Shown: positions 24,001-30,000 of the stretch, piece by piece
Layout of the letters: each line of letters opens with the position of its first letter
Position numbering within the stretch: the stretch's first letter is position 1
Assembly (NCBI RefSeq): GCF_056746865.1
Contig: NZ_CM163382.1
Reading direction: 5' to 3' (one strand)
DNA length: 64,000 nucleotides
Made by a program: the position numbers

Positions 24001-27000
24001 AAGAGAATATCCGACGGGAAGCTGCTGAACAGGCCAGGCTCGAAGCTGAACAAAAAGCGAAAGCTGAAATTGAGGCTGCGGCACGCCTGGCGGCGGAAGA
24101 AAAAGCACGTGCTGAAGTAGCAGAACGTCAGCGAATTGAAGCAGAGCAGCGTGCACGACGCGAAAAAGAAGAAGCCGTTGCCGAGGAACGCCGACGCCAA
24201 GAGGCGGCAGAAAAAGCCCGCCTTGACGAACAGAAGCGTATCGCCGACGAAGAAGCGCGCCGAGCTGCAGATAAAGAGCATCGCCGTACCGTTAACCGCA
24301 GAGTAATCGCAGATCTGATAGCCCAAGGCATTCACGAAGAATTCGCGCAGAAAGCAATGTTGGCTATCGCTGGCGGCAAAGTGCAGGACGCGTATATCAA
24401 ATATTGAGGTGGGTATGAACGTTAATCAGCAGAAAAATCTTCAAAAAATCATGCTGGCATTCGACAAGGACTACCGCCTGTCAGAACAGCTATATGACCG
24501 ACAAGTTGAACTGATCGATAGCATCCGGCTTCATCAACTGGCCTCAACTTTTGACGCTGTAACAGGCAAAGGAGTTCGCCAGGAAGTACTGGAGGCTGCT
24601 AAAGACAGCCCTGAGTTCGAAGAACTGATGGATGCCTACCGGCGAGAGGCAATGGCAATTATCGCCCGCTGGGATCTGGCGGATCGGATTGATGGGCAGA
24701 GGGAAGCGGCATGAAACCGGGAATTTATTTCGACATCAGCAATGAGGACTACCACGCCGGTGACGGCGTGAGTAAGTCGCAACTGGACATGGTTGCCAAG
24801 AATCCGGCGCTTCTTAAATGGGTTCAGGCAGCACCAGAAGACGAAGAGAAAAAGTCTGCACTGGATATGGGAACCGCATTGCACTGCCTGCTTCTGGAGC
24901 CTGGAGAGTTCGACAAACGCTTCATTGTTTCACCGAAATTCGATCGTCGGACGAAACAAGGTAAAGCTGACGAAGAAGCATTTCTTCGTGATGTAGCGGA
25001 TATGGGGATTACGGTACTTGATGCCGAGCAGTGGCGGAAACTGGAGCTGATGCGTGATAGCGCAATGGCTCACCCGGCGGCACGCTGGATGCTGGAAGCA
25101 CCTGGTTACTGCGAAGCATCAATGTACTGGAATGATGAAGAGACTGGTGAGTTGTGCCGCATTCGTCCAGACAAATGGCTGAACGAGCACAACGTGATCG
25201 TCGACGTGAAAAAGGTTGCAGATATGGACCGTTTTGCACGCCACATCGAGGAATTCCGCTACCACGTGCAGGACGCAATGTACCGCGAAGGCGCAATGAG
25301 GGTTACTGGTCAGCCGCATGGTTTTTTCTTTCTTGCCGTGAGCGAAAGCATTGATTGTGGTCGGTATCCGGTACGCGTGTTCGAGCTGGATGCGCCGGAT
25401 GTCGATGCCGGGCACGCTCTGTTCCGCCGGGATCTGAATACCTATCACGAATGCCGCATCAACGATGAGTGGGGCGGAGTGGAAATTATTAAACGCCCTG
25501 ACTGGGCACGTAAACAGGATATGTACGTATGAGCAATGATATCGCAATCACATCACAACCAGGCGCAACTGTAGGTACTGCTGCGGCAATCTTCAGCCCG
25601 GAGGGCATGAATCAACTGGTGCGTTTCGCGGAGTTGATGTCACAAAGCAAAGCGACTGTACCGAAACATCTTGAAGGCAAACCTGCCGATTGTCTGGCGG
25701 TGACCATGCAGGCGGCACAGTGGGGAATGAACCCTTTCGCCGTGGCGCAGAAAACGCATGTGGTAAACGGAACGTTAGGCTACGAAGCACAGTTGGTAAA
25801 CGCGGTCGTATCCTCTTCCAGCCTGCTAGCGACACGCCTGAATTATCGCTGGAGCGGTGACTGGTCGAATGTTAACGGCAAAACAGATAAATCACCGAAT
25901 CTGACGGTAACTGTGTCAGCAGTTCTTAAAGGAGAAGCAGAACCCCGTGAGCTTACCATCAGTATGGCGCAAGCCGGAGTGCGTAACTCTCCATTGTGGG
26001 AACAGGATCCGCGCCAGCAGCTTGCCTATCTTTGCACGAAACGATGGGCTCGCCTGCACGCTCCTGATGTGCTTCTCGGTGTTTACACCCCTGACGAATT
26101 ACAGGAAACGGCACCGCGCGTTGAGCGAGACATTACTCCGCAAACGACTACTGCTGCGGGAATGAACAGTCTGATCAACGCTAAACCAGTGAAAAAGCAT
26201 GATGAGCAAACGCGTAAAGCGGATAGCCGTGATCCAGAAGAAATGCTGATGGCCTTTACCAGCGCAGCGATGAATTACAGCACTGTCTCCGAACTGGATA
26301 AGGCTTACAAATACATTGCACAAAAACTTTCAGATGATGACGAACTGCTGGCAAAAGCCACCGACGTTTACAGCGTTCGTCGGGAAGAATTAAACGAAAC
26401 ATCTATGTAACCACCACCGCGGCGCCACACGCGCCGCACTGCAACCAAGAGAGGTATTTATGAAAGGTGCATTAGGTAAGAAGGAACTCCTGGCGGTGGT
26501 GCCACTGTCATGGAGCACTATCGACCGTATGGAGCGCGCAGGGGAATTTCCTAAACGCTGGTATATCACTGACAAACGCTGCGCATGGAACCGTGACGAA
26601 GTTGAGCGTTGGCTTGATGAACGTCAGGCAGCAAGCCCGGCAGAGTTCCAGGGTAAAAAACCTCCTGTTCAGCAACGTGTATATCGTCCCGTGAGCAACG
26701 CTGCATGAGTGCGCTGCTAAGGCACTGGATCAAATGGTCAGGATGGTACTTATTCCTGGCCTCTGTTTCAGCATGGCTTTATCTGCTGGCATTAATTTTC
26801 AGAGAGGGTTGGATTAAGTGAGAAAGTTAAGCCGACTTGAAAAATATCACATGAATAAGGTTTCAATGCGCAGTCCGTCAAAGATTGTCGCCGTTACTCC
26901 TGCGGCGATAGAGATCGAAAAACGCGCGATTGAAAGAGAGAAAAAAGGGCAGTTCCGCATTGCCGCTCACCTTTGGCTTCAGTGTATGGATGTTGCTTCT

Positions 27001-30000
27001 GGTGATGTTGAGCGTGCAAGGATCGCGGTTCGCAGGGACCAATGTATCACAAAAGGTAACGGCCTTCGCCGTGGAGACTATAGCGGTATAGGATGTTGCG
27101 GGGTGGTTTATGACTAAGAAATACACACTAATCTATGCAGATCCACCCTGGGTATACCGGGACAAAGCCGCAGATGGTAATCGCGGTGCCGGTTTTAAAT
27201 ATCCGGTTATGAGTGTGATGGATATCTGCCGCCTTCCTGTGTGGGATTTGGCCGATGAAAACTGTCTGTTGGCCATGTGGTGGGTGCCAACACAACCACT
27301 CGAAGCACTAAAAGTTGTTGAAGCCTGGGGGTTCCGTCTGATGACCATGAAGGGCTTCACGTGGATAAAATGTGGTAGTCGACAACCAGATAAACTGGTT
27401 ATGGGTATGGGACACATGACTCGCGCCAATAGTGAAGATTGCCTGTTTGCAGTTAAGGGAAAACTACCTCCGCGCATTAATGCAGGGATCGTTCAGTCAT
27501 TTACCGCACCGCGGCTTGAGCATTCAAGAAAACCAGATGTCGTTCGTGAAAAACTTGTGCAATTGTTAGGCGATGTTTCTCGCATTGAACTGTTCGCCCG
27601 CCAGACGTCTCATGGCTTCGATGTTTGGGGTAATCAGTGCGAAGACCCGGCAGTGCAACTACACCCCGGATACGCGTTGGATATTGGCGGATTAACAAAT
27701 GCATTCAGCAATGCTCCGCTGTCACCAACAGACAACCAGGGACGGGAGCGTGCAGCATGAAGCAGATTATGGTTGCACACAACGGCGTCAGGTTTGAAGT
27801 CGTCATGGTTTTGACTAAGTTCCACAATGATGAGGTATTGCACAGAAAAGAAACTGTAACTTACCGTTATAAACACCGCAGTTCAGCTGTTAGAAAATTA
27901 CGGAAGATTGCGGAAGAACTAAAAAATGATCCTCATCGTGTTATTGAGGTAAAAGGCAACCCATATAAAATCAAAACTTCAGTGGAGCTAAGACATATGC
28001 AATAAAATCACGCCTGACGAATCGCGATTATCTCGCTATTGGTATTGCAGAGATTGCTGGACTCAATGGCGCATGATTTGACAATGCCGCCAGAGCTATC
28101 GCATACTGACCGCACTAGAAAACAAACAGCGGTCATCCGCACCCGATAGCTTTGCGGCTTTTTTATGCCTGCAATCTGGCATAGTCACATCCGTACAAAG
28201 GTCGGGTGGAGAGGCGTAATACAACACCCGAAAGGGGAATATGCCCGGAGCTACTGTTTGTGCTCTAGTTGACACCCGATCACCAGCTACTAACTGGTTT
28301 TCGTAACTAAAAACAAACAGGAGGTCATCATGACCAGTCAACTCATCCCCGTATTCAACGGCACTATATCCAACGAAACCGCTCTTCTCGTTAATGCCCG
28401 TGATTTACACACTTTCCTCGATGTGGGTAAGCGATTTGCTTCGTGGATTGTCGAACGAATTGCTGAATATGGTTTCGTTGAAAATCAAGACTTTATGATT
28501 ATTTCCCAAGTTCGGGAAAAAATAGGCAGAGGCCGTCCTGCAAAAGACTACCACCTCACCCTCGATACAGCCAAAGAGCTGGCGATGGTCGAGCGTAATG
28601 AAAAAGGTCGTCAGGTACGACGCTACTTCATTGAATGCGAGAAACGTTTAAGACAACAAGAAACAAAAGTGGAGAAGGTCTTGTCAGGCTTCATGCCCGC
28701 CATTATGGAGGCGATCAAGCTGGAAGACAAAAAAGAATACAGTGCCCCACTGAAGCCCGGCTACCGCAGCCTGATTCACTCGCCGTCTGGTGTTCTCGGC
28801 CTGACGGAGCACTCACTGCTGATGAATCTGCTGAACCAGTTACAGGACGACGGGCACGACGTATCGGGCGCGGCGGCGGAGCTGACCACCATGTTCTGCT
28901 ACATCGTCGGTGTGAGCAAATGCCTGCGTGATATCCAGACTCACGCGGAGTACATCAACGACAAGGCAGGATTCTTCTGACGGCGGCGGCACAGGGATGT
29001 GCCGGGCAAAATTATTCCCCCGCCATCCACTTCTCAAACTTCGACGGGGAGAACGGAATCAGATCCGTATGCTCCCCGTTAATCCAGGAATCAATCATAT
29101 CGGACCACTGCTGCAACATGTAGGCGCGCTGTCTGGCGTATTCCGCTTTGTTATATACGGCGCGCACACCTTTCTGCTCATGTGCCAGAGCCTTTTCAAT
29201 CCAGTCTGAAGGATAACCAGCCTCATGCAACAACGTACTGGCTGTACGGCGCATATCGTGTACGGTGAAGTCCTGAATATGCTCACCATCTTCATTTATT
29301 ATTTTCACCGTTCTGTCGATCAGAGAGTTCAGCGCGGCATTAGATAATGGCTTCCGGAAGTTGTAACGACCAGGAACCAGATATTCACTTCCACCAGCGC
29401 ACATCTGCAACCCAACCAATATATCCTGAGCCTGTTTAGGCAGGTAAATAACGTGCGCCCGGCTTCCCTTCATGCGGTCTGAAGGAATTGTCCATGTCCA
29501 TTTTTTAAAATCTATTTCGTCCCACGTTGCATTAGTGAATTCGCCTTTACGAACCATAGTGATAAGCACCAGCTTTAAAGCCATTTTCATAGTGCCCATA
29601 GCACCAATGGCATCCAGCGTGCGGAAGAACAGGCCAATTTCTTCTGGTGTCAGTGTTCGCTCTCGTGGTTTAAATATGGCGATAGACGAAGGTTTAATGT
29701 CAGCCGCAGGATTAAACAAACCATGACCACGGTCATTGGCGTGACGGTATACGCTACTGATGATCTCCCTGGCCTGCACTGCTGTTGCCCGGCCACCGCG
29801 TTCGACAATCCGGTCACACAAATCACGAACCATCGATGTGGTAATTTCAGCCATCATTTTATTGCCAAGAACCGGAAGTATGTCACGGTCGATCACCGCC
29901 TGTTTCATTGCGCGGGTACTGTCAGCCAGGATGACGTGTTTCATATAACTGTCGGTATGTACCGCAAACGTCTCGGCACCACGAATCTTTTTGATACCGT

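Follow-up and report, generated by a model that had tools for sequence, protein, structure and literature searches.

A probable C4-type RNA switch in the leader of a mosaic antirepressor gene in a phiV10-like Escherichia coli prophage

The DNA considered here is a stretch of 64,000 nucleotides from contig NZ_CM163382.1 of NCBI RefSeq assembly GCF_056746865.1 (the whole of this stretch is called the window, and positions are those of the window unless another genome is named). It is Escherichia coli chromosome carrying a phiV10/epsilon15-like (Uetakevirus) prophage beside guaA, and our subject is the integrase-proximal end of that prophage, where a reading made from the sequence alone (the sequence-only reading) had placed a PerC-like regulator, an orphan MT-A70 methyltransferase, an 82-aa protein, an antirepressor and a terminator-like hairpin. 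In the interpretation that we hold, as a whole, to be probable, this end of the prophage consists of two independent units: the distal part of the early operon (unit 1, 26460-28005), in which the recombination genes are followed by alpA, orf38, the perC-like gene, the methyltransferase gene and orf82, and a self-contained antirepressor cassette (unit 2, 28072-28980), in which the hairpin most likely belongs to a small-RNA switch, of the type known from P1 C4 and Salmonella IsrK, that would keep the antirepressor gene ant silent.

The gene cluster itself adds nothing new. The four genes are ordinary for an E. coli prophage of this kind and are known at the annotation level, also in phiV10, and RefSeq already carries for all four proteins the names given by the sequence-only reading. 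The added value lies in the probable RNA switch on ant, since the leader of this gene suggests how a cassette that is also present in Shiga toxin (Stx) phages is probably silenced and may be released, a matter that bears on prophage induction and on the stability of Stx phages in polylysogens.

The ant leader and its structured RNA

The gene proposed to be under control, ant (28330-28980, plus strand), is a mosaic antirepressor-like gene whose product was confirmed as an AntA-domain protein (PF08346) by a Pfam hidden Markov model (HMM) search, at 97.3 bits against a cut-off of 27, and which belongs to PHROG 377 ("anti-repressor Ant", E 4e-66). Its leader begins with a sigma-70-type promoter on the plus strand (TTGACA-18-CATACT, 28078-28107; 10 of 12 matches in the scan), whose −35 and −10 positions are kept in diverged relatives with differing spacers. 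The promoter is followed by a target copy, recognised by its complementarity to the RNA loop described below and consisting of a1 (ACTAG, 28114-28118) and b1 (ACAAACAG, 28122-28129), which mimics the region of the ant ribosome-binding site and sits in the loop of a hairpin with the stem GACCGC/GCGGTC (28108-28134). The downstream target, recognised by complementarity and covariation, consists of a2 (AACTA, 28305-28309) and b2 (ACAAACAG once more, 28313-28320), and b2 abuts the Shine-Dalgarno (SD) sequence of ant (GGAGG, 28320-28324). Between the two targets lie the hairpin of the sequence-only reading and a structured RNA. The hairpin is indeed there: CCGCA (28137-28141) and TGCGG (28153-28157) enclose an 11-nt loop, CCCGATAGCTT, and are followed by C and a run of six T (28159-28164), the whole lying about 30 nt 3′ of the promoter, between the upstream target copy and the RNA. 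A generic terminator scan missed it because the loop limit of that scan is 8 nt. A further small hairpin was observed at the start of the gene, where GGTCATCATGACC (28321-28335) forms five base pairs that hold the ant start codon, also in the minimum free energy (MFE) structure of the full leader; this sequence is invariant in 8 aligned cassettes of Stx type and phiV10 type and varies in more distant relatives.

The structured RNA (28200-28289, plus strand), which we take for a candidate antisense RNA of C4 type, matches the Rfam family RF02221 (sRNA-Xcc1) at 64.8 bits, where the gathering threshold is 53, and does so over the full length of the model (positions 1-87). It has a 9-bp closing stem (P1, 28200-28208 with 28273-28281), a hairpin with a GAAA apex (P2), a second hairpin with an 8-nt variable loop (P3), a 6-nt junction and an ACCA tail (28282-28285); the variable loop, b′, reads CTGTTTGT (28254-28261), and the junction holds a′ (TAGTT, 28266-28270). 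The MFE structure of the free RNA (−33.5 kcal/mol, z −3.0) reproduces most of the Rfam structure, namely P1, P3 and the apex of P2. Compensatory changes are found in 5 of the 9 pairs of P1 and also in P3, and across the helices 15 pairs are changed on both sides; the share of paired cells is 87.6%, and it falls to 31-43% if the partners are slid.

What ties this RNA to ant is the relation between its loop and the two targets. The b′ loop CTGTTTGT is the exact 8-nt complement of both copies of ACAAACAG (28122-28129 and 28313-28320), and a′ in the junction pairs with a2 over 5 nt. The same holds with other sequences in Stx phages: in phiON-2011 the loop is CTTTGAAG and both targets are CTTCAAAG, and in VT2-Sakai the loop is CTTATTTG and both targets are CAAATAAG. 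Through the conserved RNA core, 120 loci were gathered from viral contigs, of which 106 were usable for loop-target counts, and among these 36% of cognate but 1.4% of non-cognate pairs had an exact downstream complement of 7 nt or longer (58% and 6.5% with the limit set at 6 nt). Within a 13-member subfamily, mean duplex energies were likewise better for cognate pairs, at the downstream site (−22.3 against −16.6 kcal/mol, p 2e-5) as well as at the upstream site (−23.3 against −15.3 kcal/mol, p 7e-6). In related loci the downstream open reading frame (ORF) usually starts about 52-70 nt past the RNA hairpin, and the genes so placed are mostly of antirepressor types; when 89 such ORFs were searched with Pfam, the domains found were Bro-N (23), P22_AR_C (21), KilA-N (15), P22_AR_N (13), AntA (11), ORF6N (10) and Rha (8). 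In some phage contigs, e.g., in TL-2011c, there are two tandem RNAs of the family, and each precedes an antirepressor-type gene of its own (4971-5054 and 5547-5630 in our locus L022, 7043 and 7286 in L026, 2628-2717 and 3167-3252 in L010).

The hairpin, too, recurs. Of 103 loci, 56 have an equivalent hairpin with a T-run at most 130 nt before the related RNA, compared with 16 for the reverse complement and 3 for shuffles, and the stem of this hairpin varies while pairing is kept (CCGCA/TGCGG, CCAAC/GTTGG, CCACA/TGTGG, CCGCT/AGCGG) around a conserved loop motif, CCCGNNAG. This number of loci with varied stems argues that the hairpin is a real, conserved element and not a product of chance. Its position is equivalent to that of the terminator of IsrK-type RNAs, and the layout known from IsrK (a promoter-proximal stretch that bears the target, a hairpin with U-run, and the leader of an antirepressor gene) is present and conserved, although the hairpin is weak. 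In the MFE structure of the full leader, the hairpin loop (CACCCGAT) pairs with the 5′ arm of the closing stem of the RNA, a pairing for which there is weak covariation support (4.6 against 4.1 nt, p 0.006) and which we mention as a possibility only. Two further candidates for control of the leader were considered and set aside: an extended −10-like sequence seen by eye between the T-run and the RNA (TGGCATAGT), as a second promoter, is not conserved in relatives, and for SOS control there is no LexA-box-like site near 28000-28340, the window-wide count of such sites being that expected by chance.

From the layout of P1 immI and the precedent of IsrK, the following sequence of events can be proposed. 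A promoter without a recognised operator or LexA box would transcribe the leader, that is, the a1b1 mimic, the hairpin with its U-run, the C4-type RNA and a2b2. The b′ loop and a′ junction of the processed RNA would then pair with a2b2 and block translation of Ant in trans; such a block would keep the lysogen stable and would also silence the ant genes of incoming phages of the same specificity. Conversely, a1b1, either on short transcripts that end at the hairpin or within the leader in cis, might act as a decoy that titrates the RNA, so that Ant is made, and Ant may then inactivate the prophage repressor, a protein with helix-turn-helix (HTH) domains only and without an S24 domain. The full-leader MFE structure (−77.7 kcal/mol, z −4.8) has a1b1 paired with the loop and junction of the RNA.

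Several points weigh against this proposal. All that is said here on the function of the RNA is read from sequence. The hairpin is weak, with 5 bp and an 11-nt loop, and in the close subfamily its stem is (nearly) invariant and gives no covariation signal; when folded on its own, the 53-nt RNA does not surpass shuffled sequences (z −0.4), and a GCGG/CCGC hairpin is preferred in its MFE structure. The full-leader MFE structure leaves a2b2 and the SD sequence open, from which it follows that repression would need the processed RNA to act in trans. The Rfam models for C4 (RF01695, scanned over 28060-28345) and isrK (RF01394) gave no match at E 10, no similarity to P1 Ant1 could be detected in the Ant protein of the window, and orf82, the neighbour that shares the variable slot with ant, is without a sign of purifying selection.

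Alternatives were weighed as well, and three of them concern the leader itself. It could be argued, in line with the sequence-only reading, that the hairpin is nothing but the terminator of the alpA-perC-methyltransferase-orf82 operon and that ant is independent and free of RNA control. The hairpin is the first element on the plus strand after orf82 that resembles an intrinsic terminator, with six T after the stem, and for this reason it may end the upstream operon too. However, it lies some 30 nt past a conserved promoter that is part of the ant cassette, it travels with this cassette into Stx phages in which the upstream genes are different, it is flanked by a covarying target copy and the antisense RNA, and the equivalent hairpins that precede the RNA family in more than half of the loci have to be accounted for as well. 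Ending the upstream operon can thus be a second role but not the sole one, and we think the plain-terminator explanation unlikely. What stands of the earlier claim is that the hairpin can terminate the cluster; what does not is that it simply marks the end of the methyltransferase operon, as it sits inside a separate cassette, after that cassette's own promoter.

The name of the RNA family invites another explanation, namely that the RNA acts in trans on host (virulence) genes and stands before ant incidentally. In Xanthomonas and Xylella, sRNA-Xcc1 has been described as a trans-acting, virulence-linked small RNA (sRNA) (PMC2996969; PMC12189769), genome surveys of Shiga toxin-producing E. coli (STEC) list it without a function (PMC12370729), and the searchable literature as a whole either presents it in the former way or lists it, with no function given, in STEC and APSE phages. 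Yet across many loci the variable loop tracks both the sequence beside the ribosome-binding site of the downstream gene and the upstream copy, the downstream genes are nearly always of antirepressor types, and the integron-type members (with the loop ATGCG, e.g., L060 and L075) form a separate subgroup that lacks such targets. We regard this explanation as quite improbable, while allowing that the RNA may have extra targets in trans beside ant. Conservation of the leader as coding sequence on the minus strand, be it the ORF at 28096-28341 (81 aa) or ORF10 of phiON-2011, is scarcely credible: such ORFs do exist, one of them annotated in phiON-2011 and another in Stx2-86, but from phage to phage they differ in length (81, 132 and 197 aa) and in frame, the sequence changes cluster in three short sites that are complementary to one another and not at third codon positions, and the covariance model is matched with compensatory pairs. 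We therefore return to the small-RNA switch as the most likely explanation of the leader.

A swapped-in cassette with a mosaic antirepressor

The boundaries of the leader and of ant are visible in comparisons with other phages and prophages. Between 26400 and 29100 the window shares 99.4-99.5% identity with prophages of E. coli chromosomes, e.g., in strain GF43, where the order of genes is RecT, AlpA, a PerC-family protein, MT-A70, a hypothetical protein, AntA/AntB, integrase and guaA. The closest complete phage genome is that of HEMP4, with 95% identity over the same segment, while phiV10 covers 54% of it at 98.7%. Compared with phiV10 and PAS61, alpA, orf38, the perC-like gene, the methyltransferase gene and int are 98-99% identical and their order is kept, whereas the slot between the methyltransferase gene and int is occupied by orf82 and the ant cassette in the window, by a DUF1382 gene in phiV10 and by a Ser/Thr phosphatase gene in PAS61. 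Homology to both phages ends at 27761, the stop of the methyltransferase gene, and begins again where int ends, at 29012 or 29023. Judged from these breakpoints, orf82 and ant (27762-29011) are a cassette swapped into a variable slot.

The ant part of this cassette has affinities of its own. The leader and the AntA domain (28072-28643) are 82-84% identical to the ant cassettes of the Stx phages VT2-Sakai, phiON-2011 and Stx2-86, in which the genes upstream of the cassette are different; homology to them starts at 28072-28078, at the −35 hexamer, and is higher in the leader upstream of the RNA (91-93%) than in codons 1-105 of ant (75-81%). The 3′ part of the gene is of another type: 28705-28990 matches the C-terminus of the phiV10 Bro-N protein p23, and the C-terminal stretch of Ant (about 80 aa) aligns with the Bro-N protein of HEMP4, a phage in which the AntA and Bro-N proteins have a nearly identical C-terminal domain of about 80 residues. 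The literature on the Ant protein of Phi24B (PMC3064807) concerns a different, P22-like antirepressor and was not used as evidence.

The other member of the slot, orf82 (27757-28005, plus strand), starts within the stop of the methyltransferase gene (ATGA) and encodes the 82-aa small protein of the sequence-only reading, which is present as described and whose sole family match is PHROG 9805 (function unassigned); searches of Pfam and NCBIfam gave no family. It is an ORFan of narrow distribution, with homologues in one cluster at 90% identity among 5.8 billion proteins, and differs from its HEMP4 counterpart by 2 synonymous and 6 non-synonymous changes. A single-sequence AlphaFold model (pLDDT, the model's own per-residue confidence score, 48) was too poor for use, and a similarity to DUF1382 spans 16 residues, too short to interpret.

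Beyond ant lies the gene of a P4-type tyrosine integrase (29012-30262, minus strand; Pfam Arm-DNA-bind_3, Phage_int_M and Phage_integrase), convergent with ant, and beyond that the host gene guaA (30455-32032), in the same context as in E. coli GF43. In the 31-nt gap between the convergent genes ant and int there is a hairpin (GGCACA-GGGA-TGTGCC, 28988-29003) that has a T-run on neither side. Elsewhere in the window, a tRNA gene lies within the prophage (13160-13233, plus strand; Rfam 71.7 bits), as it also does in HEMP4 (15824-15897 in its contig), and the host sRNA sroE (51736-51827, minus strand; Rfam 116.6 bits) lies in the chromosomal part.

The early operon, the methyltransferase and the PerC-like protein

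The genes of unit 1 are tightly packed. From alpA through orf38, the perC-like gene and the methyltransferase gene to orf82, successive genes overlap by 4 or 8 nt, which suggests translational coupling. At the head of unit 1, alpA (26460-26708, plus strand) encodes an AlpA-family excisionase or regulator (Pfam Phage_AlpA, 24.2 bits; PHROG 66), and its 5 differences from HEMP4 are all synonymous; orf38 (26705-26821, plus strand; 38 aa) shares 4 nt with the end of alpA and another 4 nt with the start of the perC-like gene, and its homologue in phiV10 is annotated as a membrane protein with one predicted transmembrane helix. Upstream of alpA come the genes for RecT and a PD-(D/E)XK nuclease, two ORFs without assignment, and then a promoter-like site. 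The recombination genes (24711-26410) are a separate DUF3799 PD-(D/E)XK nuclease gene (RecE-like) and a RecT gene, in contrast to the single RecE-RecT fusion of the phiV10 annotation. The first ORF after the promoter-like site (23373-24407) encodes a charged, E/K/R/A-rich, coiled-coil-like protein of 344 aa without a match in Pfam or PADLOC; it stands where phiV10 has p39, and at its place phiV10 and GF43 hold just a 50-aa ORF.

The promoter-like site itself resembles an early promoter of the lambda PL kind (TTGACA-17-AATTAT, plus strand; −35 starting at 23153 and −10 ending at 23181) and has a copy of the palindrome TTACC-N5-GGTAA on either side (23119-23133 and 23181-23195). A gene for an HTH repressor of 194 aa (22477-23061) lies upstream of it, followed by a terminator (23082-23101), and from 23101 to the hairpin in the ant leader the scan found no terminator on the plus strand. 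The window contains 14 copies of the palindrome where 1.1 would be expected, and 11 of the 14 are inside the prophage; these start at 12823, 15967, 15985, 20058, 20120, 22022, 22359, 22407, 23119, 23181 and 30305, and are scattered over intergenic or regulatory places, the last of them (30305-30319) just upstream of int. The window-wide count placed no copy at the ant promoter. By analogy with C1 of P1, the dispersed palindromes may be operators for one repressor, and the operon that starts here may be the counterpart of the lambda PL operon. With operator-like palindromes around its promoter, the operon would be silent in the lysogen and active once induction or infection has taken place, and the genes for the PerC-like protein and the methyltransferase, given their location in it, are probably lytic-phase genes. 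The domain search of the repressor candidate found two HTH-type regions, HTH domains only, and no S24 self-cleavage peptidase domain, from which it seems that induction probably proceeds via antirepressors and not via RecA-stimulated self-cleavage.

The methyltransferase gene (27110-27760, plus strand) encodes an MT-A70, or beta-class N6-adenine, methyltransferase of 216 aa, as the sequence-only reading had it. In the Pfam HMM search the MT-A70 profile was matched end to end (positions 1-172 of 172) at 79.8 bits, PADLOC reports it as MTase_II, the DPPW motif occupies residues 11-14 and is unchanged in 4 homologues from phiV10 and Stx phages, and the nearest solved structures are those of ciliate MTA1 and human METTL3. 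Its orphan status was upheld as well, in that none of the neighbours (AlpA, the PerC-like protein, orf82, Ant and Int) is a restriction enzyme or other nuclease, and the methyltransferase is alone in the PADLOC hits. Compared with the MT-A70 clade it is a single-domain enzyme, in which neither a separate target-recognition domain nor a partner was seen. The protein is 98% identical to p33 of phiV10 and 77% to orphan methyltransferases of Stx phages (phiON-2011, Stx2-86) that likewise lie near int and ant, and the changes relative to HEMP4 are mostly synonymous. Kinship with better-known enzymes was considered and rejected: M.EcoGI and M.EcoGII are prophage-borne DPPY enzymes of 349 aa and M.EcoGIX is plasmid-borne and specific for single strands, all of other families, for which reason no specificity can be transferred from them to the enzyme in the window.

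A literature search on the function of the phiV10 methyltransferase returned nothing relevant. Comparable prophage methyltransferases, of different families, have been reported to be silent in lysogens (PMC5778455, PMC4659465), and together with the probable lytic-phase expression this makes protection of the phage's own DNA a likelier function than epigenetic control of host genes; most likely, the enzyme would methylate replicating phage DNA and thereby protect it from restriction in the next host. Expression in the lysogen and epigenetic regulation of host genes is the other conceivable role, as orphan methyltransferases can regulate genes and M.EcoGIII affects many E. coli genes (cited in PMC6602927). 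However, the promoter scan found no promoter-like site directly upstream of the methyltransferase gene, the gene is coupled into an early operon with operator-like sites at its promoter, and the silent counterparts, although of other families, point the same way, all of which makes this role improbable. The sequence-only reading had offered anti-restriction or epigenetic regulation as alternatives, and of these the former is the likelier.

The perC-like gene (26818-27117, plus strand) encodes a small PerC-family protein. The PerC profile (PF06069) was matched in the Pfam HMM search at 30.1 bits against a cut-off of 22.6, over positions 5-50 of 90, which affirms the tentative PerC call, and the protein belongs to PHROG 868 (E 6e-62); PerC of enteropathogenic E. 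coli (EPEC) itself scores 143 bits on the same profile. A direct BLASTP comparison with PerC of EPEC E2348/69 gave 40% identity over 60 aa (E 2e-10), a tblastn search of all plasmids did not reach perC of the EPEC adherence factor (EAF) plasmid at E 10, and there is a weak, sub-threshold match to the ANR family. The start is ambiguous (GTG at 26818, ATG at 26851 or ATG at 26866, each chosen by different annotators), and relative to HEMP4 the gene has 9 synonymous differences and 1 non-synonymous difference. In comparison with PerC of the EPEC plasmid pEAF and the Pch proteins of prophages in enterohaemorrhagic E. coli (EHEC), the window protein has an N-terminal extension of about 33 residues and a divergent C-terminal part, and it sits at a phage early-operon position that is conserved across many enterobacterial genera. 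Its orthologues are found in Salmonella, Citrobacter, Klebsiella, Enterobacter, Raoultella, Erwinia and others, at the equivalent position in epsilon15-like phages and prophages; to our knowledge, most of these host genera lack the locus of enterocyte effacement (LEE) island.

The suggestion that the prophage could, by way of this protein, influence virulence gene regulation in the host thus comes out as a weak inference. It would have the protein regulate host genes (the LEE through ler, or curli) and the prophage modulate pathogenicity, and it draws on the family membership and on the facts that ler is under the control of prophage-borne Pch proteins and csgD under that of PchE (PMC6265319). 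In EHEC, however, it is the group 1 Pch proteins alone that activate the LEE, and those of groups 2 and 3 do not (PMC6265319). The similarity to PerC is confined to the limited stretch given above, beside the sub-threshold ANR match, the orthologues keep the same phage position in genera that mostly are not known to carry the LEE, the gene lies in an operon with operator-like sites at its promoter, and nothing belonging to the LEE was noticed in the window, though no search was aimed at it. A virulence role is, on these grounds, very improbable, and a part in the regulation of the phage itself is the most likely function of the PerC-like protein.

Comparison with P1, Gifsy-1 and the second module of HEMP4

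The arrangement in the ant leader follows that of known antirepressor switches closely in its order and less so in its parts. The annotated immI region of P1 shares with the window the order of promoter, a1, b1, c4, a2, b2 and ribosome-binding site, and in both the regulated gene is annotated as an antirepressor. The architecture of the C4 model is also shared by the window RNA, with a closing stem around two hairpins, pairing by a variable loop and a 3′ junction, and a CCA-like tail. In P1 the C4 RNA is processed from a precursor by RNase P, and in the window RNA the ACCA tail is visible directly after the closing stem. The specificity sites of P1 and P7 vary between phages and are the basis of heteroimmunity, and sites of the window type vary too. 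There are nonetheless clear differences. P1 has the leader ORF icd, whereas the window has none, with b2 directly at the ant SD sequence and 44 nt from the RNA to the ant ATG; unlike P1, the window has a hairpin and U-run between a1b1 and the RNA and no repressor operator at the promoter; and P1 Ant1 has a KilAC domain where the window Ant has an AntA domain. Competition between a1b1 and a2b2 is not a new idea, as Weinberg 2010 (PMC2864571) describes the c4 RNA together with a two-hairpin a1b1 motif in many phages and recalls a proposal of this kind.

The second point of reference is IsrK of the Salmonella prophage Gifsy-1, a short RNA that ends at a Rho-independent terminator, read-through of which gives an untranslated anrP mRNA (PMC4825925). 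IsrK shares sequence with this long RNA, raises translation of anrP about 140-fold in trans, and is followed by a stable processed RNA, STnc1160, that lies downstream (PMC4825925). As with IsrK, STnc1160 and AnrP, the window has a hairpin with a U-run, then a structured RNA, upstream of an antirepressor gene. The two differ in that isrK consists of two hairpins followed by b1 whereas the window has one hairpin holding a1b1, and in that Gifsy-1 has a coupling ORF of the orf45 type, which the window lacks.

Both kinds of module meet in relatives of this prophage. An isrK element lies directly upstream of a C4 RNA and a Bro-N gene in HEMP4 (34562-34746, minus strand, in our locus L132) and in phiV10 (1845-2030, in L006), and the single-stranded region of these IsrK RNAs carries the sequence ACTAAGTGG of the Bro-N leader, which is complementary to the loop of C4. 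Because it repeats the sequence beside the ribosome-binding site of the Bro-N gene, IsrK appears to be the a1b1 decoy of the C4 module. HEMP4 carries both modules, isrK with C4 before the Bro-N gene and an RNA of the sRNA-Xcc1 type before the AntA gene, and its two RNAs differ in their loops (CACTTAG against GTCTTTGAAG). The presence of two modules is a finding on HEMP4; in the prophage studied here, the Bro-N region lies beyond the end of the window.

With the integron-cassette sRNA of Xanthomonas campestris from which RF02221 is known, the window RNA shares a common core, AAUACAAnACCCGnAAGGGGAA. The settings are different, the window RNA being found in a prophage, between the methyltransferase gene and int and before an antirepressor gene, and not in an integron cassette; it also has cognate targets in cis, which the integron-type members do not. 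Among the loci gathered there is a subgroup with the loop ATGCG (L060, L070, L075, L078, L088, L096, L107, L128 and L129) in which the RNA is followed by TTGAC...GCTAGCC repeats and has no cognate downstream target or ORF, and which probably represents the integron-cassette type of sRNA-Xcc1.

Set beside these systems, unit 2 is, so far as its sequence can tell, a new case of the C4/IsrK kind, with an RNA that is filed as sRNA-Xcc1, a proposed decoy that falls outside the isrK model, no ORF of the icd or orf45 type, and an AntA protein as the product. Where automatic annotation assigns the name "sRNA-Xcc1" in an enterobacterial or phage genome, a C4-like immunity RNA would seem the better interpretation. 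If the switch operates as proposed, the cassette sites (CTGTTTGT, CTTTGAAG, CTTATTTG) would predict which co-resident prophages silence each other's antirepressors. A broader view, which we put forward tentatively and hold to be slightly less likely than not, is that phage sRNA-Xcc1 RNAs are C4-type programmable antisense gates for antirepressors, each with its decoy, and that phiV10-like prophages carry two orthogonal gated antirepressors with one common C-terminal effector domain. Were this so, two independent inputs at the RNA level, one through isrK with C4 before a Bro-N gene and the other through the decoy and the sRNA-Xcc1-type RNA before the AntA gene, would converge on a repressor that is not cleavable via RecA.

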